Source of the DNA: Blastocatellia bacterium | GTDB lineage: Bacteria > Acidobacteriota > Blastocatellia > UBA7656 | Assembly (NCBI GenBank): GCA_044868105.1 | Contig: JBIOWC010000122.1 | Coordinates: 1-50,569 of the forward strand | Reading direction: 5' to 3' | DNA: 50,569 bases | Part shown: piece after piece, positions 3,614 through 45,294 of the stretch | How the letters are laid out: every line of letters starts with the position of its first letter | Numbering within the stretch: position 1 is the first letter of the stretch | Program-made: the position numbers and the translations under genes | The notes under the pieces: model-generated | What the model saw: the letters and a program-made list of their open reading frames with translations, nothing else | Database searches by the model: none | Told to the model about the DNA's origin: nothing

Positions 3614-3663
3614 TGAAGAATCGGGAAACGGGTGGTGATTAACGAAAGCCTTGTTCTTGAGGC

Positions 3664-7490: not shown

Positions 7491-8271
7491 ATCCCCACCG
7501 AACACTTGGGATCTTCATCAATTGCACGAGCAGCCGATCAATCGCCACGCCGATCAAGCCAATCACAATCATTCCGACGACCAGCAAATCCATCCTCAGG
7601 CCGTTGCGCGAATCCCAGATGGCAAAGCCCAATCCGTCGCGACCGGCAATCATCTCGGCGGCGACAACCACGACCCACGCCAGTCCCGCAGTCACCCGCA
7701 AGGCCGTGATGACCTGCGGAGCGATCGCCGGCAAGGTCACCTGCGTGAACAGTTCGGCGTTGCTGAAATGGTAATCCTGAGCCACGCGAAAATAGACCGT
7801 TGGAATGCTGGCGACGGCGGCTGTCGTCGCAATGACAATGGGAAAGAATGACGCCATGAAGATCAGGAAGATGGCCGGAATATCGCCGATGCCAAACCAC
7901 AGAATGGCAAATGGGATCCAGGCCAGCGGTGAGAGATTGCGAAAGAAATTGATCGCCGGCAAAAACGCCGCCCGCGTGCGACTGTGATGTCCAAGGAGCA
8001 AACCAATCGGCAAACCGAGCGCCACGGCCAGCGCAAAACCCGCGCCCACACGAAAGAGTGAGGCGATCAGATCGTTCAGCAGGCGGCCGCTGGTGATCTC
8101 CTGACCAAACCCGCGCCCCACGGCCAGCGGCGACGGGAAAGCCGATTCAGGGAAGATATGAAACGCTGACAAAGCCGCCCACAAACAGAGGCCGGCAACC
8201 GTAACGCCAATGGGCAAGACAATCGCTTTGTGCTTGAGATGAGTTTCCATCATAAAATAAGGAATATCCAT
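7480..8271 (-). CDS. ABC transporter permease (NitT/TauT family, BPD_transp_1 type)
   Basis: Six-TM profile, with an EAA-like loop region AAEMIAGRDGLGFAIWDSR. The start is uncertain (ATG 8271 or 8253; the track uses TTG 8292). It is first in a permease-ATPase-binding protein operon. Confidence 0.85.
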   Translation of the reverse strand: MDIPYFMMETHLKHKAIVLPIGVTVAGLCLWAALSAFHIFPESAFPSPLAVGRGFGQEITSGRLLNDLIASLFRVGAGFALAVALGLPIGLLLGHHSRTRAAFLPAINFFRNLSPLAWIPFAILWFGIGDIPAIFLIFMASFFPIVIATTAAVASIPTVYFRVAQDYHFSNAELFTQVTLPAIAPQVITALRVTAGLAWVVVVAAEMIAGRDGLGFAIWDSRNGLRMDLLVVGMIVIGLIGVAIDRLLVQLMKIPSVRWGYER

Positions 8272-8562
8272 TCGAGCATGTTGCTCAGTCAAGAACCGAG
8301 GTTTAGTTGTTGCTCATTAGCAAGTAAGAAACCGATAACGTGAAAATTAAGATAGCAATATCTGCTCTTGCAGTCCAACGATTCTCAGCCTCTCCGTTGC
8401 GGCCAATGGCTTTCTCGCCTGGCGGTCGAACTGCGGCTAAGCGCCTTTGACGCGGTAGCGTCTCCTTTACAAATCGTTCTCCCATCGTGTTATATTCTGG
8501 AGTCACTGTATAGCCCGACAAATACTATTCATCCACTAGCGAGGCCAAGCGTTCCTACACCC

Positions 8563-11500: not shown

Positions 11501-12033
11501 GGAGCACCGGCTTACCGTCAACCGAGATGAAGACCGAGCGCCTCGGGGCGGCGAGTGCAGAGCTTCGCTATCGGGGTTTTTCTGTTATGAGTCAAGCCAA
11601 CAAATCATCGCCGGAACTGCCGGACTATAACCACATCGCGACGACCACCCAAAAGTGGCGCGACCTTATCGGGTATTACACGCGCTACGGCGACATCGGA
11701 GCGCTATTGGCAAACGTCGACGACCGCATCGTGATTATGAATGCCGGTGATGAGATAGTGCTTCGCTTTGCCGCGCCGCCACCGCCTGCCGAAGGTTGGG
11801 TGCGCGATTTCGTGATGATTGGCAATGGCTGGATTAAAGATGGCGATTATAACTCGGTCTTTTCCAAGACGGTGCTTCCCTTGCCGGCGCGCGATTTGAC
11901 TGAATATACTAGTCTTCCAGAGCGCCTGGAGGATGATCCGGTCTATCGCCGCCACGCGCAAGATTGGCAGGAGTACCACACGCGTTATGTCACTCCCGAA
12001 GGTTTCCAGAACACCTTGAAGGTTAAACGATGA
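8563..12033 (+). CDS. Large lipoprotein: N-terminal TPR repeats + FG-GAP/VCBS repeats + ASPIC/UnbV-like segment + ~450-aa C-terminal domain of unknown function
   Basis: The ATG at 8563 gives MLNRISPTCSFLLLVTILLAALSAAC (lipobox). TPR-like helices follow (AWANLGLLALRQKEF..., LRKAIKLDSQN). FG-GAP motifs: DFNYDFKTDLVLAG, DIEMDGDLDIVLA, ADLDADGDPD, ADMDNNGGLDIVVAG, DFTGDGRLDLVG. UnbV-like INSFGIGGEMEIRSG...IVWPNG. The track start at 8368 is an unlikely extension. Confidence 0.85.
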   Translation: MLNRISPTCSFLLLVTILLAALSAACNKGEKLPDKSSAEYQEAVRDFYVGLAALQAGADARAEERLTEVSRLAPGEPAAWANLGLLALRQKEFDSAAQKLERAHQLAPENGQIIALQGALESSRGKSAEAITYLRKAIKLDSQNLQAAYSLAQEVERLGGQESEAEAQSLFEKILETQPDNLAVLLEVTRLAAKRGDAETLRQSVARLAANAASWPAEVKEPLSALQTAAEGSDLRPVGTRVAFLRNVLLRIPEYRNSLAVVKLPTGEIGLPFLRLLKLPSPSPLPAPADEALTFEATPEPAIVAAGWSWAGHLFLDGETAPIQLVANAGQVQPAGSPALTFPAGNAATPPTANAVVALDFNYDFKTDLVLAGAGGVRVFKQENARFTEVTSATTLPASVTGGNFSSAWAADIEMDGDLDIVLAPVDGAPLVLRNNGDGTFKEVQPFAGVFGLRGFAWADLDADGDPDATLLDGRGALHFFANERGSSFRERPAPPGVNLIAAINVTDGDGDGLFELLALQTNGSVLRISDKNEGRDWQTTEVISSSESAESVAVGAAQLLIADMDNNGGLDIVVAGPASATIWLGDAQGKFNRLAASIAARIFSTADFTGDGRLDLVGLSADGKALRLVNRGTKNYHWQTVRPRAATATGDQRINSFGIGGEMEIRSGLLFQKQLIKEPVVHFGLGEQTESDVARIVWPNGAVQAEFELKADQSVLAEQRLKGSCPSLFAWDGTGLRFVKDCAPWSPAIGLRINLQQTASISQIEEWMKIRGDQLVAKDGFYDLRVTAELWETYYLDHYSLMVVDHPAGTDIFADERTATPPPALAIYTMATPRPFARAQDDNGQDVTEIVRALDSRYLDNFGRGQYQGATRDHYVELELDDAAPQSGALWLIAHGWLHPTDASVNIALSQNRQPPPHGLVLEVADGKGGWVTARDAIGFPAGKNKTILVDLNNVFRPGAPRRFRLRTNMEIYWDKLEWSTGLPSTEMKTERLGAASAELRYRGFSVMSQANKSSPELPDYNHIATTTQKWRDLIGYYTRYGDIGALLANVDDRIVIMNAGDEIVLRFAAPPPPAEGWVRDFVMIGNGWIKDGDYNSVFSKTVLPLPARDLTEYTSLPERLEDDPVYRRHAQDWQEYHTRYVTPEGFQNTLKVKR

Positions 12034-12123: not shown

Positions 12124-13920
12124 ATGAATAAGCGCATTCCAAAAATAGTATTAACGATTATCTTCATTGCCCTCCTGGCGACGCCGCTTCTCGTCAGGAA
12201 ATTTTCTGAGCGCAATCGCGCTGCAAAATCCGGGACGGATACGTCGGCGGCTATCGGGCGCTACGGATTTCACCTGGAAGAGGTCGCCAAAGCTTCCGGT
12301 ATAAACTTTACCCACCAGGCGCCGAAACTCGATGCCAAACTCGACCACATCATGCCGCAGGTGGCTTCGGTGGGCGCGGCCGTATCGGTCGTCGATTTTG
12401 ACCGCGATGGCTGGCAGGACCTCTACATTACCAACAGCGGCGAAGGCAGCCTCAACAGCCTCTATCGCAATTTGGGGGATGGCACCTTTAAGGATGTCGC
12501 GTCCGAGTTAGGTGTTGCCGACCTCAATCAAAAAGAGAGCGGGGTTTCGATGGGCGCGGTCTGGGGCGATTACGACAATGACGGGTTTGAAGACCTCTTC
12601 GTTTATAAATGGGGGCGTCCCGAACTCTTCCATAATGACGCGGGGCGCGGCTTTACACGGGTCACCGAAAAAGCTGGATTGCCGGCCTGGGTGAATGCCG
12701 GTACGGCCATCTGGTTTGATTATGACCGCGACAGCCGGATAGACCTCTTTGTCGGCGGCTATTACGCAGAAGATGTCAATCTCTGGAATCTCACCACCAC
12801 CCGGATGATGCCCGAAAGTTTTGAGTACGCGCAAAACGGCGGGCGCAAATATCTCTTTCACAATCTCGGCGGCGGCGCCTTTGAAGAGGTCAGCGCGCAA
12901 CTCGGCATCAGCAGCCGGCGCTGGGCCTTTGCCGCTGCGGCCGCAGACCTGCGCGGCACCGGCTACCCCGATCTTTTTGTCGCCAATGACTACGGGGTTG
13001 CCGAGTTGTTCCTGAACGACGGCGGCAAACATTTCCGCGAAGCGGGCAAAGCGACCGGGGTTGGCTTTGCGCCCAAGAGCGGCATGAATGCGACGGTCGG
13101 CGACATTCTCAATAACGGAAAATTCGCCATCTATGTCTCGAACATTTCCGAAGAGGGGGTGTTGATACAGGGCAATAATCTCTGGGTGCCGAGCGAAGGC
13201 AGCGGCGGCGATAACCTCAAGTACGAAAATCTGGCGCGCGCTTTTGGCGTTGAACTCGGCGGCTGGAGTTTCGGGGCGCAGTTTGGCGACCTCAACAATG
13301 ACGGCAACCTCGACCTCTATCTCACCAACGGATATGTCTCCGATAACAAAGGCACCAGCTACTGGTACGATTTCTCTAAGGTCGCTGGCGGCAACACCTC
13401 GATTATCTCGGACGCCAAGAACTGGCCGCCGATGCAAGGGCGCAGCCTCTCGGGCTATCAACAAAAGTGTGTGTGGATTAACGACGGCGCCGGTAAATTC
13501 ACCGATGTTGCGCAAGCCGTCGGCGCGACCGACACCCAGGATGGCCGCTCGGTCGCCCTCGTCGATTTATGGAATCGAGGCGTGCTCGACGTTGTTGTAG
13601 CCAATCAGCGAGGTCCGCTGCTGGTCTATAAAAATACCGCCGCGCCGGAAAACCACTGGATCGCTTTCGAGCTTGAAGGCGTGGACAGTAACCGCAGCGC
13701 CATCGGGGCTCAGGTGCGCGTCTTCTGGAACGGCGTCGAGCAGGTGCAGGAAGTTTCCGGCGGTACAGGATTCTGCGCCCAGAATCAACGTCGCCTGCAT
13801 TTCGGCCTCGGTAAGGTATCGGACGTTGAGAAGGTTGTCATCCGCTGGCCTTCAGGTAAAATACAAACGATTGTCGCGCCAGAGATTGGCAAAATTCACA
13901 AAATAAAAGAGACCGTATGA
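12124..13920 (+). CDS. CRTAC1-family protein (FG-GAP/VCBS repeats + ASPIC/UnbV domain), N-terminal membrane anchor
   Basis: TM anchor IVLTIIFIALLATPLLV. FG-GAP motifs: DFDRDGWQDLYITN, DYDNDGFEDLFV, DYDRDSRIDLFVGG, DLNNDGNLDLYLTNG. UnbV tail: NRSAIGAQVRVFWNG...VVIRWPSG. Confidence 0.9.
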   Translation: MNKRIPKIVLTIIFIALLATPLLVRKFSERNRAAKSGTDTSAAIGRYGFHLEEVAKASGINFTHQAPKLDAKLDHIMPQVASVGAAVSVVDFDRDGWQDLYITNSGEGSLNSLYRNLGDGTFKDVASELGVADLNQKESGVSMGAVWGDYDNDGFEDLFVYKWGRPELFHNDAGRGFTRVTEKAGLPAWVNAGTAIWFDYDRDSRIDLFVGGYYAEDVNLWNLTTTRMMPESFEYAQNGGRKYLFHNLGGGAFEEVSAQLGISSRRWAFAAAAADLRGTGYPDLFVANDYGVAELFLNDGGKHFREAGKATGVGFAPKSGMNATVGDILNNGKFAIYVSNISEEGVLIQGNNLWVPSEGSGGDNLKYENLARAFGVELGGWSFGAQFGDLNNDGNLDLYLTNGYVSDNKGTSYWYDFSKVAGGNTSIISDAKNWPPMQGRSLSGYQQKCVWINDGAGKFTDVAQAVGATDTQDGRSVALVDLWNRGVLDVVVANQRGPLLVYKNTAAPENHWIAFELEGVDSNRSAIGAQVRVFWNGVEQVQEVSGGTGFCAQNQRRLHFGLGKVSDVEKVVIRWPSGKIQTIVAPEIGKIHKIKETV

Positions 13921-27629: not shown

Positions 27630-27692
27630 AAGCGCCTTCCGCTTCGGTTGCCGGATGATAAGAAATAATGAGAGGTCTGCAAGTCTGAGTTG

Positions 27693-28706
27693 ATGATCAA
27701 TAGATTGCCAATCATCAATGTTATCGGGTACTCGAATAGCGGCAAGACCCGCTGCATCGTCGAGCTGGTTGCTATCTTAACGCGTCGCGGTTACAAGGTC
27801 GCCACCGCCAAGCATTGTCATGAAGGGTTCCAACTCGATCTTGAAGGGAAGGACTCCTGGAAACATAAACAGGCTGGCGCGGTCGCTACTTTTCTATCCG
27901 GCAACGGACAGATTGGCCTCATTCAAGATATGGGCGAATCCCTGCCGTTGCAATTTATCGCCGGGCGGTTTATCCGAACGGCGGATCTTTTACTGGCCGA
28001 AGGCTTCAGTTGGGAACCAACCCCTAAAATTCTTGTCGTTAAGGGAACGAAATTCGCGGCCGCAAAGCACGCTTCAAGCGACACCCTGTTTGCATTGGTT
28101 TGCGACGAACGACTGGATGCTTCGCTGCCACAGTTCAATTTTTCTCAGCTCGAACAACTGGCAACCCTGATCGAACAGCACTTTTTGACCGCTCTCCCAT
28201 CTATCTCATCGCAAGAACCCATAAATGCCAATGAGGTGCTGCCGGCGTCTCCCTCAAGTTTTCTCTCTTTACTGGCAACGCACGCTCATCTGGACGCTCT
28301 GTTCCTGCATCATCAAGAAGCCCTCCTGGCCTTGGATGTGGCATCCGCCCTGCAAACGCTAACGGAATATCAGCAATCGCTTTATGCGCATATGCGATAT
28401 GAGGAGGCATTGTTGCTGCCGGTCTATGAACGCGCCGGGCGCATTCAAGGCGGCGCAGTCGAATTTTTTACTGGCGAGCATAAGCGGATGCGCGAAATGC
28501 TTGAGCGCATCGAGGAAGCGCTTAACCATCTATGGAGAAGTCCTGCGGATTTGCGCCCTCACATCATCAAGCTGTTTGATAGGGAAGCCGTTTTCAAACA
28601 ACTGGTAGAGCATCACGATCAGCGCGAGCGCAATATCTTCTATCCCACGCTCGACAAGGTTACAAGCGAAGCGGAGCGTCGAACCTTACTCGAACATCAT
28701 CCGTAG
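27693..28706 (+). CDS. mobB: MobB (molybdopterin-guanine dinucleotide biosynthesis adapter) fused to a C-terminal hemerythrin-like (HHE) domain
   Basis: N-terminal ~170 aa: VIGYSNSGKTRCIVELVAILTRRGYKVATAKHCHEGFQLDLEGKDSWKHKQAGA...LLAEGF (P-loop MobB). C-terminal ~150 aa carry His/Glu-rich helices: LFLHHQEALL, FFTGEHKRMREMLERIEE and LVEHHDQRERNIFYPTLD. Confidence 0.8.
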   Translation: MINRLPIINVIGYSNSGKTRCIVELVAILTRRGYKVATAKHCHEGFQLDLEGKDSWKHKQAGAVATFLSGNGQIGLIQDMGESLPLQFIAGRFIRTADLLLAEGFSWEPTPKILVVKGTKFAAAKHASSDTLFALVCDERLDASLPQFNFSQLEQLATLIEQHFLTALPSISSQEPINANEVLPASPSSFLSLLATHAHLDALFLHHQEALLALDVASALQTLTEYQQSLYAHMRYEEALLLPVYERAGRIQGGAVEFFTGEHKRMREMLERIEEALNHLWRSPADLRPHIIKLFDREAVFKQLVEHHDQRERNIFYPTLDKVTSEAERRTLLEHHP

Positions 28707-28858: not shown

Positions 28859-28877
28859 AAAAAAGCCCCGAAGGGGC
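28859..28877 (-). terminator. Rho-independent terminator for the minus-strand nar-act-narK transcript
   Basis: On the minus strand this reads GCCCCTTCGGGGC followed by TTTTTT. It is the last of a series of hairpins downstream of the narK-domain stop (29095). Confidence 0.6.
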
Positions 28878-29094: not shown

Positions 29095-31461
29095 TTAGGC
29101 CGCCGCCGCTTCATAGCGTTCGCCTTTGTGGCGCAGGAAGACGAAATAATTCATCGCTAAACACAGCAACGCGAAGCCTGAAAGAAAGACGAAGCCTAGG
29201 GCGTAAGAACCTGTCTGCCCGCGAATCAAGCCTAAAACCAGCGGCGGGAAAAAACCGCCGAGTCCGCCCGCCGCGCCCACCAACCCGGTGATTGTGCCGG
29301 TCTCTTTCGGGAAATATTCCGGCACCAATTTAAAGACCGCGCCGTTGCCCGCGCCTAACATTGCCGCGCATCCCAATGCCCCTGCGGTAAAGAGAATCAT
29401 ATTTGATGAAGTCAGTCCGAGCGCCAAAATCGCTATGCCTGCGAGAACAAAAAACAACACCTGCGCGCCGCCAAATTTATCTGCCAGTCCGCCGCCAAAC
29501 GGTCGCATAGCGGTTGCGACAATCACAAAGCCCGCGACCCGCGCTCCCGCATCTGTCATCGTCAATCCGAAAATATCTTTGAGCAACGTCGGCAAATAGA
29601 TGCTCAAAGCGACGAATCCGCCAAAGGTCAGGAAATAGAATAATGACAGGATCCAGGCAATCGGCTCGCGTTTTAGAATAGCGAAATATTCGCCGAGCTT
29701 TTTCGGCGGCGCTTTCACCGCAGCGTTGCGGGCAAAGATCAAAAACACCAGGCCGAATAAACCGGCCGCCGCGCCGAAAACCCAGAACGGCACTCGCCAG
29801 TTTCCGGTTGCCGCAACCAGAGCCGGCGCGCCGAACACCGCGATGGATTGCCCGATGTTACCCATGCCGTAAACCCCCAGCGCGATGCCTTGTTGATGTG
29901 CAGGAAACCATTTCGAGGTGAACGATACGCCTACCGAAAAGCTCATTCCGGCAAAGCCCAGCAAAAAACCCCAGCCTATCAACGCCGCGTAAGAGTTACT
30001 GAAACTGGCGCCGATTGCCGGAAGCAAACAAAAACATAAAAGCAAGCCGAACACTTTGCGCCCGCCATATTTGTCCGCCAGAATTCCCAAAGGCAAACGA
30101 CCGAGCGAGCCTAAGAGCACGGGCACGGCGATCAGCATAGAAGTTTGCACTGGCGTGAGGTTGTACAGTTCACGAAAGCGCGGAGCCAGCGACCCCAGTA
30201 ATCCCCACACCGCAAAGGTAACGGCGAAACCGAGGGTTGATAGCGCCAGCGCGCGATAGGCCTTCGCGTCCCAGGCAATATGGTCTTCGGGCGTTTCATA
30301 AGCCTGCAGCGCCAGGCTCTCCGACAAATAGGGGTCGTGTTTTGGCAACACCGCGGCTTTCTGCAAACCTTTAACAAACGCCCAGATAAAGAGCGCCGCA
30401 AAGCCTAGGCCTAGCGCGAGGTCAATGAAACCTGGCACCGCCGAAAGCCCCAGCGCCGGATAAATCATCACGTACAAATCCAGCCCATGACCGACCAGGA
30501 CAATCGCGCAAGCCCACAGCAGCAAGGTCTCGCTGCGTTTGGCGCGGCGCGAAATCAACAAGGCAAAAGGAATCAGCCAGTTTAAAAACAGATTGAGCAG
30601 AAAGAAAAATTTCCAGCCGCCGGTTTGCGTGCGGCGGATGTAATAGACCGCCTCTTCGGGAATGTTGGCGTAATAAATCAACAGATATTGCGACAGCCAG
30701 ATGTAGGCCCAGAAGGTCGAAAAACCAAAAACCAGTTTGCCAAGGTTGTGCAGATGGTCTTCGTTGAGTTGCGGCAACACGCCGCGCCGGCGCAACACGA
30801 TAGCCAGCACGGCGATTGCCGCGATGCCGCTCAAAAACAATCCTGAAAAGCAATAAAAGGCATAAATCGTGCTGTAGAACTCGGCTTCCAAAGACATCAG
30901 CCAATCGAAACTTGCGAGTGAAAAAGTCACCGCGAAAACCGCCAGAAAAATCGCTGACAGTTTTTTGCTCCGCATCGTGCGCCGTGGCGAATCGTCTTCA
31001 TCTTGCTTGTGCGATTCTCTGACCATCAGCCAGGCGAATAAAACCCACAACGCCAGGATGACAACCATGCGCCCAAAGAAAAACGGCGTATTCAAAAACG
31101 CCAGTTTCATCTTCATCCCGGCGCTGGCCTCCGCCAGCGAAAGATGCGTCCATTCGTAGAGCCGGTATCTGCCCAAGAAGATGGCCAGCATAGCGATGGC
31201 GCCAAACGGCAGATAATTCATCATCGCTTCCGGTATGCGGCGAATGACCGCGCTCCAGCCGGCGTTCGATACGTGATAGATGCTCAAAAAAACCATCGCG
31301 CCAAGCGCCAGCGTCAAAAAATAAAACCCGTTGAGCAACACCGCTGCCCACGCTCGCGTGCTTGCGAAGATGAATCCGACAAGCAAGCCAAGCGCGCCAA
31401 CCATGAATGACGTCGTCAAAATTTTCTGCTCGCGTTCGGTGATCAATGCCTGGTTTGCCAT
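29095..31461 (-). CDS. actF-narK: Fusion protein: alternative complex III subunit ActF (NrfD-like polytopic membrane domain) + NarK-type MFS nitrate/nitrite transporter
   Basis: One uninterrupted frame. The ATG at 31461 (MANQALITEREQ) lies 20 nt after the actE stop, with GGAG 9 nt upstream. Residues to about 400 form multi-TM ActF, ending ...LPKHDPYLSESL. From about residue 420 the sequence is MFS: GILADKYGGRKV, GVYGMGNIGQS and GAGNGAVFKLVPEYFP. Confidence 0.8.
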   Translation of the reverse strand: MANQALITEREQKILTTSFMVGALGLLVGFIFASTRAWAAVLLNGFYFLTLALGAMVFLSIYHVSNAGWSAVIRRIPEAMMNYLPFGAIAMLAIFLGRYRLYEWTHLSLAEASAGMKMKLAFLNTPFFFGRMVVILALWVLFAWLMVRESHKQDEDDSPRRTMRSKKLSAIFLAVFAVTFSLASFDWLMSLEAEFYSTIYAFYCFSGLFLSGIAAIAVLAIVLRRRGVLPQLNEDHLHNLGKLVFGFSTFWAYIWLSQYLLIYYANIPEEAVYYIRRTQTGGWKFFFLLNLFLNWLIPFALLISRRAKRSETLLLWACAIVLVGHGLDLYVMIYPALGLSAVPGFIDLALGLGFAALFIWAFVKGLQKAAVLPKHDPYLSESLALQAYETPEDHIAWDAKAYRALALSTLGFAVTFAVWGLLGSLAPRFRELYNLTPVQTSMLIAVPVLLGSLGRLPLGILADKYGGRKVFGLLLCFCLLPAIGASFSNSYAALIGWGFLLGFAGMSFSVGVSFTSKWFPAHQQGIALGVYGMGNIGQSIAVFGAPALVAATGNWRVPFWVFGAAAGLFGLVFLIFARNAAVKAPPKKLGEYFAILKREPIAWILSLFYFLTFGGFVALSIYLPTLLKDIFGLTMTDAGARVAGFVIVATAMRPFGGGLADKFGGAQVLFFVLAGIAILALGLTSSNMILFTAGALGCAAMLGAGNGAVFKLVPEYFPKETGTITGLVGAAGGLGGFFPPLVLGLIRGQTGSYALGFVFLSGFALLCLAMNYFVFLRHKGERYEAAAA

Positions 31462-31481
31462 AATCTGAGTGCTCCAAACTT

Positions 31482-32042
31482 TTATCTGCCTTGCAAATTG
31501 CGGATGTACAGAATCACTTTCCAACGGTCATTAACCGAAACCTGTGCAGCATGCGCCGGCATATCTTTGCGCCCCAGGGTGATGACATGAAACATACTGC
31601 CGTCCGGCAAATTTCTTGAGGTTTCGGTTTTGTACGAAGGCGGATTCGGATACTTGGGAATCATCGCGCCATCGCCGCCACCCGTTGCCCCGTGACACGC
31701 CGCGCAATAATTGGAAAAGATGTACTGCCCGCGCGCTAAATTTTCCGGCGTCGTGGCAAACGGATTTTTCAACTCGCGTCCGGCTCTCGCCGCTTCCTCT
31801 TCGCTCACGCCGTAATGGAAAGGCCGATGCCCTCTCGGGATGGTTCCTTCGACCGGCAGTTGTTCGGTCATCTGATTCGGCAACACCGGATTCGAGGTTT
31901 GCGAAAGGTAGGCCGGCGAGTATTGCATCTGCGTCGTCCACTCGCGATTTCGCACCGTCGCGTCCCAACCGAGCAGATAAACGCCGCCGCAAACCATCAC
32001 CGGCAACAGGATGACTGATAACCATTCGAGCGTTTTTTTCAT
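31482..32042 (-). CDS. actE: ACIII monohaem cytochrome c subunit ActE
   Basis: N-terminal TM anchor, a single CAACH haem motif, and position after actD. ATGA-type overlap with actD. Confidence 0.8.
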   Translation of the reverse strand: MKKTLEWLSVILLPVMVCGGVYLLGWDATVRNREWTTQMQYSPAYLSQTSNPVLPNQMTEQLPVEGTIPRGHRPFHYGVSEEEAARAGRELKNPFATTPENLARGQYIFSNYCAACHGATGGGDGAMIPKYPNPPSYKTETSRNLPDGSMFHVITLGRKDMPAHAAQVSVNDRWKVILYIRNLQGR

Positions 32043-32581
32043 ACGAATTGATCTCCTTCGATGACGCGAATCGCCCCGTGTTTATTGACTATTTTCAACG
32101 CCCGCCGGGCATCGAAAGCGGCATCAGCCTGTTTCAAAACCAGCACGAAGCGGTCATCGGTCACGCGGTCAAAGGTCAATTTTTTGCTGAACAACCACAA
32201 ACGATTGCGGACCAGCAACACGCCGATGGCAATCAATCCTGAAAACAAGACCATCAATTCGAAGGTCACAGGGATAAACAGCGGAAACGAATTGAACGGT
32301 TTGCCGCCGACGTTCAAAGGCCAATCGTAAGCCGAAGTCCACACCTGCAAACCCAACCCAAACGTTAAGCCTACGGCTCCGGCGATGAAGGCAATCCAGG
32401 TCAGCTTCGAGCGTTTCAACCCGACGGCCTGATCCAGGCCATGAACCGGAAACGGGGTGAACGCATCGTGAATCTCAAATCCCGATTCGCGCGCCTCAAT
32501 CGCCGCGGCTTTCAGATCATCTTCGCGTTTGAAATAGACAGCGACGTAGCGGACATTGGTTGAATCTTTAACGGCGAGCAT
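32039..32581 (-). CDS. actD: ACIII membrane subunit ActD (DUF3341-like)
   Basis: VAVYFKREDDLKAAAIEARESGFEIHDAFTPFPVHGLD followed by two TM segments. It overlaps actC by 14 nt. Confidence 0.8.
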   Translation of the reverse strand: MLAVKDSTNVRYVAVYFKREDDLKAAAIEARESGFEIHDAFTPFPVHGLDQAVGLKRSKLTWIAFIAGAVGLTFGLGLQVWTSAYDWPLNVGGKPFNSFPLFIPVTFELMVLFSGLIAIGVLLVRNRLWLFSKKLTFDRVTDDRFVLVLKQADAAFDARRALKIVNKHGAIRVIEGDQFV

Positions 32582-33974
32582 AATGCACCACCCCCTTGAT
32601 TTCGTTCATCGAGATAACCGGAAAGAGTCGCAAAAAGAGCAGGAAGAAAGTGAAGAACATGCCGAAACTTCCCAGCATAATCGTCACTTCGGTAATCGTC
32701 GGCGTATAACTCGCCCAGCTTGACGGCAGAAAATCGCGGTGCAACGAGGTGACGATAATCACGAAGCGCTCGAACCACATCCCTACGTTAATGAGAATCG
32801 AAAGCGTGAAAATTGCCGGTATGGTTGTGCGGATGCGTTTCGACCAGAAAAGTTGCGGCACGATGGCGTTGCAGGTCACCATCGTCCAATAGGCCCAGGC
32901 AAAGGGCCCCATCACCCGATTGATGATGACGAATGATTCATTGGGATTGCCGCTGTAAAAACCGATGAAGACTTCCGTGAGATAAGCGATAGACACAATC
33001 GAGCCGGTCAACAGCGTGACTTTGCACATATTCTCAAGGTGCTGCACGGTGATGTAATTTTCCAGATGAAGTAATTTTCTGACCGCAATCATTAAGGTCA
33101 TCACCATGGCGAATCCCGAAAAGACCGCGCCCGCGACGAAGTATGGCGGAAAGATGGTCGAATGCCAGCCCGGTATCACAGAGGTTGCGAAATCGAAACT
33201 GACGATGCTGTGCACCGAAAGCACCAGCGGTGTTGCCAAGGCCGCCAGCACCAGATAAACCGTTTCGTAACGCGACCAGGTGCGGTTCGAGCCATTCCAT
33301 CCGAGGCTCATCACTTGGTAAATGGCGCGTCGGAATTTCGACACCGTGCGGTCTCGCGCGGTCGCCAAATCGGGAATCAACCCCAGATACCAGAAGACCG
33401 CAGAGATGGTGAAATAAGTCGAAATCGCAAAGAAATCCCACACCAGAGGCGAACGAAAGTTGACCCACAAAGAGCCCCGTTGATTCGGATAGGGTAGGAT
33501 CCAGTAAAACAGCCACGGACGCCCCATATGAATCACCGGAAAAATCCCCGCGCACATCACGGCAAACAAGGTCATCGCTTCTGCCGAACGATTCACAGAA
33601 GTGCGCCATTTCTGATTGAACAAAAAGAGAATCGCCGAAATGAACGTTCCGGCATGCCCGATGCCAATCCAAAACACAAAGTTGGTGATGTCGAAAGCCC
33701 AGCCGACGGTTTTGTTCAATCCCCAGGTGCCGATGCCGGTGTTTACGGTGTGCGCGGTGGCGATAATGCCGGCGCACATCACAACGAAAGCCGAGAGGAA
33801 AGCGATCCACCAGCCGACGCCGGGTTTTTTATCAAGCAGGCTACAGATGTCTTCGGTGACTTCGCCGTAACTTTTGTCGCCTTCGATTAAAGGCTTGCGT
33901 AGCGCCGAAACGACTTCGTGCGAAGCCTCGTGCGGGCGCTCTTCGTGAGTGATTTTTTCAAACGCAACAGCCAT
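32568..33974 (-). CDS. actC: ACIII quinol-interacting membrane subunit ActC (NrfD/PsrC family)
   Basis: 468 aa, about 10 TM segments, NrfD-like. It starts 2 nt after the actB stop. Confidence 0.88.
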   Translation of the reverse strand: MAVAFEKITHEERPHEASHEVVSALRKPLIEGDKSYGEVTEDICSLLDKKPGVGWWIAFLSAFVVMCAGIIATAHTVNTGIGTWGLNKTVGWAFDITNFVFWIGIGHAGTFISAILFLFNQKWRTSVNRSAEAMTLFAVMCAGIFPVIHMGRPWLFYWILPYPNQRGSLWVNFRSPLVWDFFAISTYFTISAVFWYLGLIPDLATARDRTVSKFRRAIYQVMSLGWNGSNRTWSRYETVYLVLAALATPLVLSVHSIVSFDFATSVIPGWHSTIFPPYFVAGAVFSGFAMVMTLMIAVRKLLHLENYITVQHLENMCKVTLLTGSIVSIAYLTEVFIGFYSGNPNESFVIINRVMGPFAWAYWTMVTCNAIVPQLFWSKRIRTTIPAIFTLSILINVGMWFERFVIIVTSLHRDFLPSSWASYTPTITEVTIMLGSFGMFFTFFLLFLRLFPVISMNEIKGVVHYARR

Positions 33975-33976: not shown

Positions 33977-36900
33977 TTATGCCTTCTCCTCTTCGACATT
34001 TCGCACCTTTGCCAGATAACTGATTGCCGGTCGCAGGTTCAATTCTTCAAGCAAGATGAAATCGCGCCGGTCGTGTTTGAGCCGGTTCGCGCGGCTTTCC
34101 AGATTGACTAAATCGCCAAAGGTAATCGCCTGCGCGGGACAACTCTGCTGGCAAGCGGTTTGAATCTCGCCGTCTTTGATGTCGCGGGTTTCATTGCGCG
34201 CCTGAATTTTCGCTTCTTCGATGCGCTGAATACAGAAGGTGCATTTTTCCATCACCCCGCGAGTGCGAACCGTCACATCCGGATTGAGCGCGAGGTTGGC
34301 AATCGGGTCCGGATGTTGATACTCGAACCAGTTAAAGCGGCGCACCTTATAGGCACAGTTGTTGGCACAATAGCGCGTCCCGACGCAGCGATTGTAAACC
34401 TGCATGTTCAACCCTTCGCTGCTATGCACAGTCGCCAGCACCGGGCAGACGCTTTCGCACGAGGCGTTTTCACATTGCGAACACATCACCGGCTGATAAA
34501 TCACCTGCTCCTGGTTTTCATCCGCTTCATAGTAACGATCAATTCTCAGCCAGTGCATTTCACGTTGCCGCCATACTTCGTCTTTGCCGACAACCGGAAC
34601 ATTGTTTTCCGCCTGACAACTCAACATACAAGCCGAACAACCGGTGCAGGCGTTAAGGTCAACCACCATGGCCCACTTGTGTTCAGGGTACGCATGGTCT
34701 TGCCAGATGCTCTTAGAAGGTGCGGTATCGCCTTCGGTTTCGCGGTGACCGCTGACGATTTCAGCGAGCGATAATTCTTTGATAAGCGGCCTGCCATCTA
34801 GCGTATCGTGGCGCTGGGTCAATGCCAGTTCAACTTTAGCGAGCGTCTTTTCAAGGGTGATGTCGGAGCTTTGATACTGAAAAGTGCCGTTGTCGAAAGC
34901 CACCAAAGGATAAGCGTTCACGCCGATATGATTGCCAACTTTACCGGCTCGGGTTCTGCCGTAACCGACGGCGATGGCGACACAGTCGTCGTGTTGTTGC
35001 GCTTGAATGTAAACCGGAAGCTCGATTGCCGTATCGCCTTTGCTGATGCGAACCACGCGACCATTTTCGAGTTGCAACTTCGCGGCGAGCGCCGCCGAGA
35101 CGCAGGCGTAATTATCCCAGGTCACTTTGGTAATCGGGTCGGGCAACTCTTGCAGCCAGGGGTTGTTGGCCTGCGAGCCATCGCGCAACGCGAGCTTTTC
35201 GTAAAGCACAAGATGCAGTTTTCCCGCACCTTCATCGGCGCGCTGCGCCAAACGCTGGATAGCCGCGTGCAAATCATCTGTAACCAAAACGCCAGGTTCT
35301 GCCGGCGGTTTCGCTGTCGCTGCAGTCGTGATTTGCAACGAAGGTTTCGCTGCGGCAGCCGTTGCCGCCGACGTTGTTGAGGTTTTTGCCCTGGCGGTCA
35401 TCGCGGCGGGTGTTATGGAAGGTTTCGCTTCAATAACGAACACCCCATCGTGCAGCGCCTTATCCCAAAACTCGTCGAAACTTGTGTATTGGCTCTGTTG
35501 CGAAAAAATTTTCTCTTGCCAGCGCGCTCTTAGCACATCGTAGAATTTGCGCTCATCATTGCTCCAACGCAGCAAACTCTCTTGCCAGGCCCGCGTTTGA
35601 AACAGCGGCGCAATCGTCGGCTGGCTCAAACTGAGCGTGCCCGTCGCCGGCTCCGCATCATCCCACGATTCAAGCTGATGATGGCGCGGGCAGACGTAAT
35701 CAACCAGCGCAGAGGTTTCATCAAGGTAAGCGTTGAGCGAGACTTTCAAGCCGACTTTCGCCAGCCCGTTTCTGAATTCGCGGCTGTTGTAAAAATTATA
35801 AGCCGGATTCGCATCCACAATAATCAGAGCCGCGACTTCACCGGCGTTCATCTCGCGCACCAGTTCTTTTACATCGCTATCATTTTCAACGCGCTGGTCG
35901 GCGGCGCTCGGGACCTCAAGCGTCTTGCCATAATTGCCCAGCGTTTGATTGATGAAATTGATTAACTGCTGCGCATCCGTATCATTGGCTCCGCTGATGA
36001 CCAGCGATTCGCCGCGATGCTGCCATAAGGCTTCAGCGCTTTGCTCTATGGCGCGTCGAACTTTCGGCGACAGGTGTTCGCCGTTGATCGAAGTGAAATC
36101 ATTTTGCTTCGCGGCACTGGCTTTCGCGGCAATCAATTTTGCCAGCAGCAATAAAGCGAACATCTCTTCGGCCGGCGAAACCTTCACGCGCGTATCGGCG
36201 TTGCTGCCCGTGAGCGACAGGCGCGATTCAAACTGAAGGTGACGCGAAAACTCGGGCTTCTCGTTTTGCAGATTGCGTGCCTCCGCATAAGCGCGAGTGA
36301 ATTGCATCGGCGACAGCCAGGTGCCTAAAAAATCGGCGCCGAAACTCACAATCATTTTTGCTTTATCAAAATGAAAAACCGGCCGCGCCGCAACCCGGTG
36401 AGTTTTCAAATGCGCCGCGCCAATCGCCGCATTCGACACGGCGTTATAGACGAGGTGTTTGCCATTGGCGAATTGGTTAAGGAACGTATCAATGGTGTCG
36501 CGTGAAGTCGGGCTTGCGGTCGGTGAACCGAGCACCCGAACTTTGCCGCCCGATTGTTTAATCGTGGTCAACTGCCATTTAATTTGCTGATCAACATCTT
36601 CCCAGCTTGCCGCTTGCGATTTGATCAAAGGCTGACGCAGGCGTTCGCCATCATAAAGCCCGAACACCAGACTGTGAGCCACCGCGCACAGCCCGCCTTT
36701 GCTTAAAGGATGTTCGGCGTTGCCTTCGAGTTTGATCGGGCGACCGTCGCGCACTTTGACGAGCGTACCGCAAGCCGCATTACAGCCCCCGCAGGTGGAG
36801 GCGTACCAGTTGGCAACTCCCGGCGTCAGTTCTACGGGTTGCTTCAGATAAGGAATGATTTTCTGTTCAGGAGCGCGGCAACCGCTCAAGGCCGCCGCGG

Positions 36901-37030
36901 CAATCGAAAAGCCGACCAATTCGATAAACGTGCGGCGCGGCATCACTGCCCGTGGTCCATCGGTTGCCGCACAGGATTCTTCATCTGCGTCTTGCCGTTT
37001 GATGATTTGCCAAAGTTTCTCTACGGTCAT
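33977..37030 (-). CDS. actB: ACIII subunit ActB (Tat-signal, molybdopterin-oxidoreductase-like domain fused to 4Fe-4S ferredoxin domain)
   Basis: The ATG at 37030 (MTVEKLW) has AGAGGG upstream. Tat-like PRRTFIELVGFSIAAAAL. The C-terminal part has multiple Cys clusters (CTGCSACMLSCQAENN, CSQCENASCESVCP, CVGTRYCANNCAYKVRRF, CTFC...). The track start at 37090 would include an intergenic hairpin. Confidence 0.88.
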   Translation of the reverse strand: MTVEKLWQIIKRQDADEESCAATDGPRAVMPRRTFIELVGFSIAAAALSGCRAPEQKIIPYLKQPVELTPGVANWYASTCGGCNAACGTLVKVRDGRPIKLEGNAEHPLSKGGLCAVAHSLVFGLYDGERLRQPLIKSQAASWEDVDQQIKWQLTTIKQSGGKVRVLGSPTASPTSRDTIDTFLNQFANGKHLVYNAVSNAAIGAAHLKTHRVAARPVFHFDKAKMIVSFGADFLGTWLSPMQFTRAYAEARNLQNEKPEFSRHLQFESRLSLTGSNADTRVKVSPAEEMFALLLLAKLIAAKASAAKQNDFTSINGEHLSPKVRRAIEQSAEALWQHRGESLVISGANDTDAQQLINFINQTLGNYGKTLEVPSAADQRVENDSDVKELVREMNAGEVAALIIVDANPAYNFYNSREFRNGLAKVGLKVSLNAYLDETSALVDYVCPRHHQLESWDDAEPATGTLSLSQPTIAPLFQTRAWQESLLRWSNDERKFYDVLRARWQEKIFSQQSQYTSFDEFWDKALHDGVFVIEAKPSITPAAMTARAKTSTTSAATAAAAKPSLQITTAATAKPPAEPGVLVTDDLHAAIQRLAQRADEGAGKLHLVLYEKLALRDGSQANNPWLQELPDPITKVTWDNYACVSAALAAKLQLENGRVVRISKGDTAIELPVYIQAQQHDDCVAIAVGYGRTRAGKVGNHIGVNAYPLVAFDNGTFQYQSSDITLEKTLAKVELALTQRHDTLDGRPLIKELSLAEIVSGHRETEGDTAPSKSIWQDHAYPEHKWAMVVDLNACTGCSACMLSCQAENNVPVVGKDEVWRQREMHWLRIDRYYEADENQEQVIYQPVMCSQCENASCESVCPVLATVHSSEGLNMQVYNRCVGTRYCANNCAYKVRRFNWFEYQHPDPIANLALNPDVTVRTRGVMEKCTFCIQRIEEAKIQARNETRDIKDGEIQTACQQSCPAQAITFGDLVNLESRANRLKHDRRDFILLEELNLRPAISYLAKVRNVEEEKA

Positions 37031-37052
37031 AAGACCCTCTTTCGAGTGATAA

Positions 37053-37129
37053 GTGATGAGTGATGCGTTTTCAGAAGTGATCTTGCGCATCCACTTGCTT
37101 CACGTTTCTTCCTACTCATCACTCATCAC
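37053..37129. repeat. 13-bp perfect inverted repeat (gtgatga units) between actA and actB
   Basis: gtgatgagtgatg (37053-37065) pairs with catcactcatcac (37117-37129), with a 51-nt loop. Confidence 0.6.
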
Positions 37130-37133: not shown

Positions 37134-37721
37134 TCAATGATGACAAACCGAACAATCGGTTGAAGCCATCAATTTTTTCGTGGTCGCTTCTTTCGTGACC
37201 ACCGGTCGGCCCGCATCGTCCAACGTCACTTCGCGGTGAGTGCGATGACAGGCGACGCAATTGCCCATCAACAGTGGGTCGGCTTGTGAAACCCGGTCCA
37301 TGGTTTCTACTGCGCCGTGACATTGCTGGCATTGCAAACCTGCGACGACGTGACGGCTGTGATTGAATACTGCGTGGTCCGGTAAATCGTTGACCTTCAC
37401 CCATTCGATGGGTTTGTTCTCTTCCAGGGCGTGGGCAATCTTTTGAATTTCGGGCGAGTCTTTTAAAATCCGCTTGTGACAATTCATACAGGTTGACGCG
37501 GCGGGAATGCCTGCAACCTTCGATTTATCGGCGCCCGTGTGACAGTACAAACAGGCGATCTGGTTATCGCCGGCGTGCAGCTTATGGGAAAAGTTTATTG
37601 GCTGCACCGGCTCATAGCCTTGCTGATTGCCGAGCGAACTGAAGGTCGAGCCTTGCCACAAAACGATGGCGCCGATGATCGTAACCAACAACGAGATTAT
37701 TTTTGCGGTTCTCAAACTCAT
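37134..37721 (-). CDS. actA: ACIII pentahaem cytochrome c subunit ActA
   Basis: TM anchor plus five CxxCH motifs (CLYCH, CMNCH, CQQCH, CVACH, CSVCH). It starts 4 nt after the narI stop, and its GAGGTGA RBS overlaps that stop. Confidence 0.88.
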   Translation of the reverse strand: MSLRTAKIISLLVTIIGAIVLWQGSTFSSLGNQQGYEPVQPINFSHKLHAGDNQIACLYCHTGADKSKVAGIPAASTCMNCHKRILKDSPEIQKIAHALEENKPIEWVKVNDLPDHAVFNHSRHVVAGLQCQQCHGAVETMDRVSQADPLLMGNCVACHRTHREVTLDDAGRPVVTKEATTKKLMASTDCSVCHH

Positions 37722-37725: not shown

Positions 37726-38499
37726 TCACCTCGTAATTGCCGGACGATTAGTCGCCGCAGGTTCAGCGCTCAATGGCGCAGCGACCTCCATTGGTCGCGG
37801 TTTCGGGCGCAACGCATATCCGCGAAGCTTTTGGCGATTCCAATTCCACATCACCAGTTGATACGGCCGCCACAAATAAGGAATCGGCACAACCAACATA
37901 TGAACCAGACGCGAAAACGGAAAGACGGCAACTAACAACCAGGCGTTCAAGACGTGAAGTTTGATGGCCAAAGGCAACGGCGCGATCATTGCCAAATCAG
38001 GTTGCAGCGTAAACAACGAACGCAGATAAGGCGCTAAGGATGTCGCATACCACGAAGACCCCCAGCGATAGAAAATCGCAATAAAGATGCCGAGCCCGAC
38101 CTGGGTCAGCAACAGCAACAACACAACGATGTCCATCTTGGAAGTGACGGCGCGAATGCGCGCCGAGGTATGGCGGCGGATGATTAAATTCACCAGCCCC
38201 GCAAGCGACATCAAACCGAACAAAAGCGCGGTGCTTTCGAGCAGGTACAAACGCGCCGGTACGCCGTTAAACCACAAGACCTGTCGCGGAAACAGTAGGC
38301 CAATTAAATGCCCCAAAAAGAGGGCGAGGATGCCGATGTGCCACGACACCGAGCCGTAAAAGAGTTCGCCGCTTTCCAAAAATTGCGAGGACAGGCTGGA
38401 ATAGGTGAAAGGCTTTTTGAAATAGCGCTGCACCGTCACCACGGTTGCCAGAATGACTACCGCGTACGGAATGATAATGAAAAAAAGATTATCGTACAT
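37726..38499 (-). CDS. narI: Respiratory nitrate reductase gamma subunit (dihaem b, membrane)
   Basis: Five TM segments. N-terminus MYDNLFFIIIPYAVVIL...FYGSVSWHIGILALFLGHLIG carries the conserved His ligands. It has a ~35-aa C-terminal extension. Confidence 0.9.
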   Translation of the reverse strand: MYDNLFFIIIPYAVVILATVVTVQRYFKKPFTYSSLSSQFLESGELFYGSVSWHIGILALFLGHLIGLLFPRQVLWFNGVPARLYLLESTALLFGLMSLAGLVNLIIRRHTSARIRAVTSKMDIVVLLLLLTQVGLGIFIAIFYRWGSSWYATSLAPYLRSLFTLQPDLAMIAPLPLAIKLHVLNAWLLVAVFPFSRLVHMLVVPIPYLWRPYQLVMWNWNRQKLRGYALRPKPRPMEVAAPLSAEPAATNRPAITR

Positions 38500-38523: not shown

Positions 38524-39111
38524 TCAAAATGGATGCGCTTGCAAGACCGGCAAGGCGATAGCCCCACGCCCCGTCGTGGTTTCTACAGGTGCGCTCGCCG
38601 GCGGCGCTTCTTCTTTCAAGGTCGCGCCGATGGCGACCAGCAAACTGCCGTAAAGGTTCCCGGCTTTCTGCAAAGCCGCGGTCATTAAATCAAGCGCCGG
38701 AATCAGACATTCGGCGATTAAATCGCTGCGAAGTTCTGCATCTTCGAGTTTCACCAGCAGGCGCAACAGCACCGGCAAGTAATCGGGCAACTGGTGCGCT
38801 TGCCCTAAAGTAAACGGCGCTTCGGTTTCGCGCAGGTTCGCCAGAAAAACCCCGCGTTTATAATTTTCACCAAACAGGTGGTAGCCGATTTCCAGATTGC
38901 ATACGGGGTTCAAATCAAAGGTCTGCGTGTAGCGTTCCTGCAAGGTCGCCAGCGGCAAGCCTTCAACAGCCTGTAAAAATTCCAGCAGCAGCCCGGCGCA
39001 CGGCGTGGGCGAACTATTCATTGACCATTTGCAGTCAGCGACTCGCGCCTCCCAGTCAGCTGTTGGATAGTCGAGCAAATCGGCATAAATTTCATAAAGC
39101 TGATTCATCAA
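38524..39111 (-). CDS. narJ: Nitrate reductase molybdenum cofactor assembly chaperone
   Basis: YTQTFDLNPVCNLEIGYHLFGENYKRGVFLANL, and its position between narH and narI. Confidence 0.88.
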   Translation of the reverse strand: MMNQLYEIYADLLDYPTADWEARVADCKWSMNSSPTPCAGLLLEFLQAVEGLPLATLQERYTQTFDLNPVCNLEIGYHLFGENYKRGVFLANLRETEAPFTLGQAHQLPDYLPVLLRLLVKLEDAELRSDLIAECLIPALDLMTAALQKAGNLYGSLLVAIGATLKEEAPPASAPVETTTGRGAIALPVLQAHPF

Positions 39112-39138: not shown

Positions 39139-40632
<1,494 letters not shown>

Positions 40633-40786: not shown

Positions 40787-44421
<3,635 letters not shown>

Positions 44422-44425
<4 letters not shown>

Positions 44426-45294
44426 TGTTTGTTCCTCCGCACCAGTTCTTCGCGCACCCCGCGAAGGCGGTTTTTCCAGATGCGATTGAGCGCCACAAAG
44501 GACAACACCAGCGCCAGAAAACCAACGGCCGGAAACCATAAATTGAGCGGCGCGGTTGCCGGTTGGGTTTGCGCCGCCGGATAGGCGAACTTGGCGTTTT
44601 GAAAATAAGCGAAGAGTTTGACAATCTCTTCATCGGTCAAAGGTTTGGTGCCGAAGACGCTTTTCATTGTCGGGAAATTCGGGTTCTGTAAAATCGAAAT
44701 CAACTCCGGGTCTTTGTACTTGGTGTTGACGGCCGTCAAATTGGGACCCAGTGTGCCTCCGCCGAACCGGCCTATATCGTTGACGCTGTGACAGGCGATG
44801 CAGGAAGTGCCGCCGTTTTGGAGCCCGGTTTTGCCGGCGAAGGTTTCACGCCCCGCGTCAATATCACCGGCTTCGATGGGGCGGCTCAATTTCGCGCCGG
44901 CCGGGATAAAGGTTTCGCCTTTCTTGGTAAGCGATTCAATCAACGAAAGGACGCCGTCAATCTGTTCGGGCGTAAGCGGCTGGTCAGGCATCACTTCGGG
45001 AGCGAATTTCTTAAAGAGCGCGTTGGCATCCGGGTCGCCTTTGCGATTCATTGCGGCGGGCGATTGAATGAACTGGTGCAGCCATTCTTTCGAGCGTCGC
45101 TCCATCACGCCTTTCAAATCCGGTCCTTTTTTGTCGCCGCCGTTGATGTTGTGGCAACTGTAACAGCTCTTCTCGAAAGTCACGGCGCCGGCTGGCGTCG
45201 TTTGCGCCAATGTGGGTTCCGATACGGCAGCGAGCCATAGAAAAACGCCAATCAAGGCGGTCAATATTTTGCATTTGATTTTTCTGTCTAGCAT
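44422..45294 (-). CDS. narC: Membrane-anchored dihaem cytochrome c, NarC-like (first structural gene of the nar operon)
   Basis: The ATG at 45294 gives the signal peptide [25 protein letters not shown]. Two haem motifs are present, CYSCH and CIACH. C-terminal [22 protein letters not shown]. This architecture and position match Thermus thermophilus narC as I recall it. Confidence 0.75.

Follow-up and report, generated by a model that had tools for sequence, protein, structure and literature searches.

In a window of 50,569 nucleotides from a Blastocatellia bacterium (Acidobacteriota; contig JBIOWC010000122.1 of assembly GCA_044868105.1), by which we mean the whole stretch of DNA that was analyzed, a single gene joins ActF, a membrane subunit of the quinol-oxidizing alternative complex III (ACIII), in one reading frame to a nitrate transporter of the NarK type. 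It is confirmed as a real, one-frame gene in this window. Both component families are already well known; their fusion is real and conserved, and it appears to be undescribed. The ActF-NarK fusion, a parallel NarI-NarK fusion and the operon type that unites nar and act genes are all undescribed in the searchable full-text literature, outside of which most subscription journals lie. A first-pass annotation, made from the sequence alone, had stated that it knew of no ACIII subunit fused to a transporter; none is found in the searchable literature either, where absence is no proof. The gene, its parts and its signals are the following:

29095..31461, minus strand: coding sequence of the actF::narK fusion, 788 codons plus stop (open reading frame (ORF) list, domain matches, full-length homologs).
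30313..31461, minus strand: ActF domain, residues 1-383, with 10 transmembrane (TM) helices and a DPYLSESL motif at its end (phmmer against the PDB, Foldseek, proton-path residues).
30256..30312, minus strand: linker, residues 384-402, hydrophilic, predicted to be flexible and cytoplasmic (AlphaFold2 (AF2), homologs, ratio of nonsynonymous to synonymous substitution rates (dN/dS)).
29095..30255, minus strand: NarK-type major facilitator superfamily (MFS) domain, residues 403-788, with 12 TM helices (PF07690, TIGR00886, PDB matches, conserved residues).
31472..31475, minus strand: GGAG, a Shine-Dalgarno-like motif 10 nt 5' of the ATG at 31461 (sequence reading).
28865..28877, minus strand: terminator-like GC hairpin GCCCCTTCGGGGC with a T-run, 3' of the fusion gene (sequence reading).

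The open frame extends without interruption over 29095..31524 on the minus strand and, counted from the ATG at 31461, comprises 788 stop-free codons, which confirms the single frame of about 788 codons that had been proposed for 29095-31461. By rough arithmetic, a frame of this length would stay open by chance with a probability of about (61/64)^788, or ~1e-16. The coordinates and the size of the gene can be taken as right, since the ATG at 31461 encodes the same start methionine as in the homologs, since the GGAG motif precedes it, directly after the actE stop codon, and since the peptide strings quoted in the first-pass annotation (LPKHDPYLSESL, ALQAYETPEDHIAWDAK, GILADKYGGRKV and GAGNGAVFKLVPEYFP) are all present in the translation.

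Family libraries are silent on the N-terminal half: Pfam and NCBIfam scans returned zero matches in the first 390 residues, and the NrfD model matches ActC only. We therefore identified this half via sequence and fold searches against the PDB. In the phmmer search, the ActF chain of Rhodothermus marinus (6f0k_F) aligns with window residues 25-385 over its positions 50-416 of 417 (E = 6.3e-58), so that the ActF part is complete and stops where a free ActF stops; further ActF chains match as well (6btm_F, 3.4e-57; 6lod_F, 1.5e-38; 8k9e_F, 2.6e-33). For the fold search, an AF2 model was built from 74 fusion homologs, with a mean predicted local distance difference test score (pLDDT) of 83.4, and Foldseek aligns ActF chains with its N-terminal half at TM-scores of 0.84-0.90. 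A hydropathy scan places ten hydrophobic segments within residues 1-363. Among the 14 residues listed in PMC5928083 for the proton half-channels and coupling of R. marinus ActF, 12 are identical in the window protein, while S80 is replaced by Ala and S238 by Leu. The gene also occupies its expected place after actE in an actABCDEF cluster, in an order that is identical in all related loci, and the earlier assignment to an ActF-type subunit thereby holds. The N-terminal half is, as predicted from its sequence, a bona fide ActF. Given that the fused copy is the sole actF of the operon, the protein presumably assembles into ACIII beside ActC.

The solved complexes of R. marinus and Flavobacterium johnsoniae (6F0K, 6BTM) share the actA-F order, the pentaheme ActA, the monoheme ActE and the ActB, ActC and ActD subunits with the window cluster, and their ActF chains align end to end with the ActF half; unlike these chains, which stop at a DPYL..SLAL motif, the ActF of the window runs on into a 12-TM transporter. 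ActF is the least understood of the large ACIII subunits; it lacks both a cofactor and a quinol site, and a putative proton path is all that it offers. As no Pfam or NCBIfam model matches the ActF half, annotation pipelines overlook it and label the proteins as plain MFS transporters, so that ACIII seems incomplete in these genomes; the only names that we find for the fusion in databases are 'MFS transporter' and 'NarK/NasA family nitrate transporter'.

The C-terminal half is covered by family models. Pfam places MFS_1 (PF07690) at residues 410-710 (E = 1.9e-45), and the NarK model TIGR00886 is by far the best NCBIfam match (E = 2.5e-66, 224.3 bits). In the PDB sequence search, residues ~391-788 match the NarK/NarU entries 4u4t, 4iu8 and 4jr9 with E-values of 1e-18 to 3e-20, and NarK/NarU also rank at the top among MFS structures in the Foldseek comparison with the C-terminal half of the model (TM-score 0.75-0.83). 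Together with 12 hydrophobic segments within residues 404-776, these matches bear out the complete 12-TM NarK domain that had been read from the sequence. In Escherichia coli NarK, R89 (TM2) and R305 (TM8) are the substrate-binding residues, and the Gly-rich nitrate signatures lie in TM5 and TM11. In the alignment to 4u4t and 4iu8, R455 and R653 correspond to this Arg pair, both Gly-rich signature motifs are kept (GMGNIGQS and GAAGGLGGFFPP), and the equivalents of the aromatic pocket residues F49, F147, Y263 and F267 are conserved. Across the 74 aligned fusion proteins, the two Arg, the equivalents of F49, F147 and Y263 and much of both motifs are invariant, and the F267 equivalent is kept in at least 90%.

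Despite this likeness to E. coli NarK and NarU (4U4T, 4JR9, 4IU8) in fold, Arg pair, pocket and signatures, the fused domain is short, with ~390 aa and without the loop insertions of the E. coli protein, to which it is 26-29% identical. To place it further, we compared it with tandem narK pairs, in which we assigned the first gene to the NarK1 type and the second to the NarK2 type by position and length. Identity of the fused NarK is 36% (155-186 bits) with the first genes, but 25-29% (81-107 bits) with the second genes or with E. coli NarK; the second genes, which come from other phyla, are in turn 35-37% identical to E. coli NarK (240-279 bits). The fused NarK is thus, on the evidence of sequence identity, a distinct subfamily, nearer to the genes in NarK1 position than to NarK2 or E. 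coli NarK. PMC4689864, which cites Moir & Wood 2001 and Goddard et al. 2008, attributes nitrate/H+ symport to NarK1 and nitrate/nitrite antiport to NarK2. The NarK-type domain that had been proposed stands; it departs, however, from the antiporter type of E. coli NarK and NarK2, and the nitrate import and nitrite export that had been suggested for the fusion are therefore putative.

Between the two halves lies the linker, which had been read as ~20 hydrophilic residues at roughly 30260-30320 and maps to 30256-30312. In the AF2 model, residues 385-398 are coil and the pLDDT falls below 50 at 388-394. All 59 parsed homologs have a linker of 18-20 aa with a variable sequence, in which a near-invariant Trp is the sole conserved residue and no conserved cleavage motif is recognizable; its tryptic peptide in the window protein is HDPYLSESLALQAYETPEDHIAWDAK. 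No ATG, GTG or TTG occurs in frame from the end of ActF to the first TM helix of NarK, and so a NarK that includes its first helix cannot be translated separately. In the Kyte-Doolittle scan, the whole protein has 22 hydrophobic segments, 10 plus 12. Loops rich in Lys and Arg alternate along them, and the linker falls on the positive, cytoplasmic side, which it shares with the motif-A loops and the central loop of the MFS domain. MFS proteins have a cytoplasmic N-terminus, and the termini of the 12-helix NarK are cytoplasmic like those of ActF. R. marinus ActF has 10 TM helices with both termini in the cytoplasm and sits at the periphery of the complex, where its TM helices 1 and 10 are also located (PMC5928083). 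The C-terminus of ActF and the N-terminus of NarK are thus predicted to be on the same, cytoplasmic side of the membrane, as a workable fusion demands, and the peripheral position of ActF would leave space for NarK at the rim of ACIII.

The fusion is not confined to the window. A search of 5.8 billion proteins yielded over 120 clusters (90% level), drawn from NCBI, JGI, ENA and Logan assemblies, with ~788 aa, ~100% query coverage and 60-94% identity; where a taxon is named, it is Acidobacteriota, Blastocatellia or Pyrinomonadaceae. A scan of 185,579 species-representative genomes found it in 28 species representatives (L001-L028), and in 28 of 28 the ActF and NarK matches share frame and ORF (tblastn and ORF check). 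One fusion protein (P0038) is identical on 11 contigs of separate assemblies. Among 1.84 billion representatives at 50% identity, an exhaustive HMMER scan recovers the two-domain architecture in exactly one cluster, the remaining strong matches being ActF proteins of ~390 aa or NarK proteins of ~400 aa; this single cluster indicates that the fusion is one monophyletic family. Overall, nearly all carriers are labeled Blastocatellia, Pyrinomonadaceae or Chloracidobacterium, a group of soil and groundwater Acidobacteria. Four fusion-bearing metagenome-assembled genomes (MAGs) have odd labels ('Clostridia' in two cases, 'Heliobacteriaceae' and 'Acidimicrobiia'), which we treat as unreliable since their loci share synteny and 60-68% identity with those of Blastocatellia. 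By the Nei-Gojobori method, dN/dS ranges from 0.05 to 0.23 in the ActF half and from 0.04 to 0.17 in the NarK half, values that point to strong purifying selection on both, and it is relaxed in the linker (0.15 to >1).

The fusion is the last gene of a tightly packed operon on the minus strand, with the order cytC-narG-narH-narJ-narI-actA-actB-actC-actD-actE-actF::narK. In operon order, the preceding genes are:

44422..45294, minus strand: opening gene of the operon, for a diheme cytochrome c that has a signal peptide (Pfam Cytochrom_C; two CxxCH).
40787..44539, minus strand: narG, cytoplasmic type (Pfam Molybdopterin/Molydop_binding).
39139..40632, minus strand: narH (TIGR01660, 9.1e-196).
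38524..39111, minus strand: narJ (TIGR00684, over cutoff).
37726..38499, minus strand: narI (PF02665, 1.8e-63; TIGR00351, over cutoff).
37134..37721, minus strand: actA, pentaheme cytochrome c (Pfam cytochrome c7/c3; five CxxCH).
33977..37090, minus strand: actB, with molybdopterin-like and 4Fe-4S domains and a Tat-like RRTF motif (domain scans and sequence reading).
32568..33974, minus strand: actC, NrfD/PsrC-like quinol-binding subunit (PF03916 NrfD, 7.8e-26).
32039..32581, minus strand: actD (PF11821 ActD, 8.7e-54).
31482..32042, minus strand: actE, monoheme cytochrome c (Pfam Cytochrome_CBB3/Cytochrom_C; one CxxCH).

As the first-pass annotation had it, the fusion shares its operon with NarGHI: narGHJI lie upstream in the window, and narH-narJ-narI-actA-E directly precede the fusion in every fused locus whose 5' flank is long enough to show them. 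The N-terminus of NarG reads as the typical cytoplasmic type without a Tat signal, and a reductase that faces the cytoplasm requires a nitrate importer, for which the fused NarK is the sole candidate within the window. The true narG start is probably ~37 codons downstream of the start of the longest ORF; homologous NarG proteins have 1212-1223 aa in L081, L084 and L085. This longest ORF overlaps the gene for the diheme cytochrome c, whose hydrophobic N-terminus begins at an internal Met. A diheme cytochrome c gene also precedes narG in L085 and L086, which carry the NarI-NarK fusion of Terriglobales, and it is reminiscent of Thermus NarC.

The union of nar and act genes is itself a recurrent arrangement. 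We find actABCDEF directly 3' of narGHJI in L033-L035, L041, L052, L054-L056, L059, L060, L062, L064, L068, L075, L078 and L079, which belong to Acidobacteriota (Blastocatellales and, in L078 and L079, Holophagaceae), Planctomycetota, 'Ca. Polarisedimenticola' and unclassified MAGs. In the Blastocatellales/Aridibacter MAGs L033-L035, the ActF of this narGHJI-actABCDEF arrangement ends freely. Separate narK genes lie between narI and actA in Planctomycetota and other MAGs (L041, L056, L059, L060, L064, L068, L075) or after actF (L054); the free narK of L052, again between narI and actA, is 61% identical to the fused NarK half. In Myxococcota (L038, L040, L042-L050 and L053, at ~3050-3690), a gene for a NarI-like cytochrome b, 30-40% identical to the window NarI, immediately precedes actA, and the flank fetched for these loci showed no match to narG or narH.

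ActF is not the only partner to which NarK has been joined. Among long relatives of NarK, we found a NarI::NarK fusion of 644 aa (P0134), which is represented by ~30 clusters (P0134, P0270-P0298) from Terriglobales, labeled 'Candidatus Angelobacter sp.' where named, and listed in databases as 'respiratory nitrate reductase subunit gamma' or 'NNP family transporter'. It shares the short-NarK subfamily with our fusion (52% identity to the window NarK half) and likewise has NarK attached, via its cytoplasmic N-terminus, behind the C-terminus of the membrane subunit that comes last in the operon; it differs in that the partner is NarI, the heme b subunit of nitrate reductase itself, and in that its operon, cytC-narG-narH-narJ-narI::narK, with the fusion gene last (10001-11935 in L085/L086), has no ACIII. 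In a third type, with ~800 aa, a SLAC1/TehA-like domain (PF03595) is N-terminal to the same NarK subfamily (P0307, P0340, P0343). In eight fused loci (L011, L013, L014, L016, L018, L019, L020, L023), the gene directly after actF::narK is a free SLAC1-like one; the window has no such gene. SLAC1/TehA-like channels are a possible exit route for nitrite or other anions. A further SLAC1/TehA-like gene was noted at 12451-13566 in L081-L083.

In a neighbor-joining tree of NarK domains, all 24 of the 24 sampled ActF::NarK proteins fall into one clade, beside the free NarKs P0121, P0133 and P0136. NarI::NarK forms a separate clade inside the free NarKs of Terriglobales, which makes it an independent event, and the SLAC1 fusions are placed elsewhere. 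From their separate placement it follows that the short-NarK subfamily of Acidobacteriota has, by the topology of this tree, been fused at least three times independently, and the predicted partners are in each case membrane proteins encoded with nitrate respiration. The parallel NarI and SLAC1/TehA fusions support the view that NarK is physically tethered to the membrane complexes of nitrate respiration. C-terminal additions of other kinds occur in further relatives of the NarK half: an unannotated multi-helix membrane domain in P0123 (752 aa) and P0162 (656 aa), with a CxxC...CxxC tail at the end of P0123, and a Pyridox_ox_2 (PNPOx-like) domain in P0171 (546 aa).

We propose that the fused protein is the ActF of an ACIII dedicated to the nar system and at the same time the nitrate transporter of the operon, with NarK tethered at the rim of ACIII, and give this reading a probability of roughly 0.62. 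The product would be a bifunctional membrane protein of 22 helices. Its N-terminal half would be the ActF of an ACIII that is co-transcribed with a cytoplasm-facing NarGHI, and its C-terminal half would supply nitrate to the same system. From the cytoplasmic end of ActF, which lies at the periphery of ACIII, a flexible linker of ~19 residues would lead to the cytoplasmic start of the first NarK helix; as one polypeptide with a cytoplasmic linker, NarK would be produced in a 1:1 ratio to ACIII and kept at its rim. Imported nitrate would be consumed by NarGHI, while quinol electrons could pass via ACIII to periplasmic c-type cytochromes able to feed downstream N-oxide reductases. The likely benefit would be the co-synthesis, co-insertion and co-localization of the nitrate supply with the quinol-oxidizing complexes of the operon, of which the removal of nitrite by the transporter half is a probable part. 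The intact product of ~85 kDa, its assembly into ACIII, the docking of NarK on ActF, the mode of transport and the selective advantage are the parts of this proposal that we infer.

Several observations weigh against it. The TIGR00886 score of the NarK half lies under the curated cutoff of 311.7 bits, and the domain is, by the above comparisons, predicted not to be of the E. coli antiporter type. Genes for a nitrite reductase (nirK, nirS, nrfA) were looked for in the window and, over flanks of 10 kb, in two long contigs, and none was found. The AF2 model yields no confident relative orientation of the two halves (predicted TM-score 0.64), and proteolysis may occur in the flexible linker. Moreover, the fusion is dispensable in close relatives. 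In the sister lineages L032-L036, which carry narGHJI-actABCDEF, ActF ends freely; in L029, a stop codon interrupts the linker (~2100-2134) and NarK is missing; the linker of L030 (~3230-3270) has lost 1 nt; L031 has a stop and a large internal deletion of NarK (6634-7000); and in L061 (11167-12549), an ActF with a linker-like tail is followed by a separate, different narK in an overlapping frame, with 34% identity. The fusion itself may thus be under weak selection. Finally, NarK is joined to the membrane protein that ends the operon, be it NarI or ActF, which also fits an opportunistic loss of stop codons.

This last point leads to the main alternative, which we consider unlikely but which keeps appreciable weight, namely that the fusion is an evolutionary accident: a stop codon was lost before an operon-ending narK, the halves function independently, and the junction is tolerated as both of its termini are cytoplasmic. 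Such an origin would account for the same NarK subfamily being joined to NarI where narI is last and to ActF where actF is last, for a linker that is nearly unconstrained in sequence and predicted to be disordered, and for the unfused and decayed states in close relatives. It accounts less well for a fusion that is kept across at least 28 species representatives and down to 60% identity with the linker length fixed at 18-20 aa, or for at least three independent fusions to membrane proteins linked to nitrate respiration, which is above neutral expectation; and even a chance tether would impose 1:1 stoichiometry and proximity.

A bolder variant, which we think rather doubtful, makes NarK a structural subunit of a nitrate 'respirasome', in which a NarK1-like nitrate/H+ symporter would be fed by protons from the ActF channel and nitrite would leave via the SLAC1/TehA-like channel. 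If true, ActF::NarK and NarI::NarK would both report an assembly of NarK, NarGHI and ACIII that also exists, non-covalently, in the many phyla with nar-act operons, and ActF would gain a function.

It is improbable that the fusion protein is a mere precursor, cleaved in the linker after insertion into separate ActF and NarK, with fusion serving translational coupling and stoichiometry only. The linker would suit a protease in being exposed, hydrophilic, of low confidence in the model and poorly conserved, but the near-invariant Trp is no recognizable cleavage motif, and the gene lacks an internal start codon for a separate NarK. We know of no precedent for such a cleaved precursor in ACIII or NarK. 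An artefact, in which sequencing, assembly or gene calling would have missed a stop or a frameshift that keeps actF and narK apart as two genes, can be dismissed as extremely improbable: the window is a single assembly and the related MAG L030 has its 1-nt indel in the linker, but the same in-frame junction recurs in the more than 120 clusters and 28 species representatives, with in-frame purifying selection on both sides of it, which excludes an assembly or sequencing error at this point.

The fusion bears on the open question of whether nitrate transporters are physically coupled to respiratory complexes. By Rosetta-stone logic, ActF::NarK predicts a contact between ACIII and NarK, and NarI::NarK one between Nar and NarK. 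A conserved, natural covalent fusion is also a ready-made construct for cryo-electron microscopy and transport assays. In Thermus thermophilus, narCGHJIKT is a nar operon that starts with a periplasmic diheme cytochrome c and ends with narK-type genes; unlike the window operon, it is not known to contain ACIII genes, and it encodes its transporters as separate proteins. In Pseudomonas aeruginosa, NarK2 has been reported in a denitrification supercomplex, in which a NarK-type transporter is likewise physically associated with respiratory N-oxide reductase complexes; there, the association is non-covalent, was seen in pull-downs and involves NorC instead of ACIII (PMC5658584). Covalent joining of NarK to another polytopic membrane domain, encoded beside narGHJI, is known from the fused NarK1-NarK2 transporter of Paracoccus and Methylophaga (Goddard et al. 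2008, as cited in PMC4689864); that protein unites two transporters with 24 TM helices, whereas the partner in the window is a subunit of a redox-driven respiratory complex.

The operon also bears on the role of ACIII. According to PMC9270275, which cites Refojo et al. 2012, ACIII is accepted as a substitute for the bc1 complex that feeds c-type cytochromes, in denitrifiers included. ACIII clusters usually neighbor genes for heme-copper oxidases (PMC5928083); the window cluster, unlike these, is part of a narGHJI operon. The presence of ACIII within narGHJI operons of several phyla suggests that anaerobic nitrate respiration or denitrification, and not the aerobic chain alone, can have ACIII as its dedicated 'complex III'.

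In one fused locus, L024, actE and actF::narK are separated by an insert of ~5.5 kb (4430-10000), which is either a mobile-element insertion or an assembly chimera. Checked for hidden genes of relevance, it proved to contain a DDE transposase along with an unrelated cargo of hemerythrin, methyltransferase, HlyIII and thioesterase genes.

The genes that flank the operon in the window encode regulators of the Rrf2, PAS-LuxR and Crp/Fnr types, a ScdA/hemerythrin protein and a MobB-hemerythrin protein, and fit an N-oxide regulon. The last of these is a single ORF (27690-28706, plus strand), convergent with the fusion gene, that combines MobB, for molybdopterin-guanine dinucleotide synthesis, with a C-terminal hemerythrin; homologs come after actF or actF::narK in L021, L032 and L033. 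Farther away, at 5637-8292 on the minus strand, lie genes for an NMT1/SsuA-like substrate-binding protein, an ABC ATPase and a permease, of the nitrate/sulfonate/bicarbonate family. The left part of the window also encodes three large FG-GAP/ASPIC-UnbV repeat proteins (3664-5478, minus strand; 8368-12033 and 12124-13920, plus strand), one of which contains TPR repeats.

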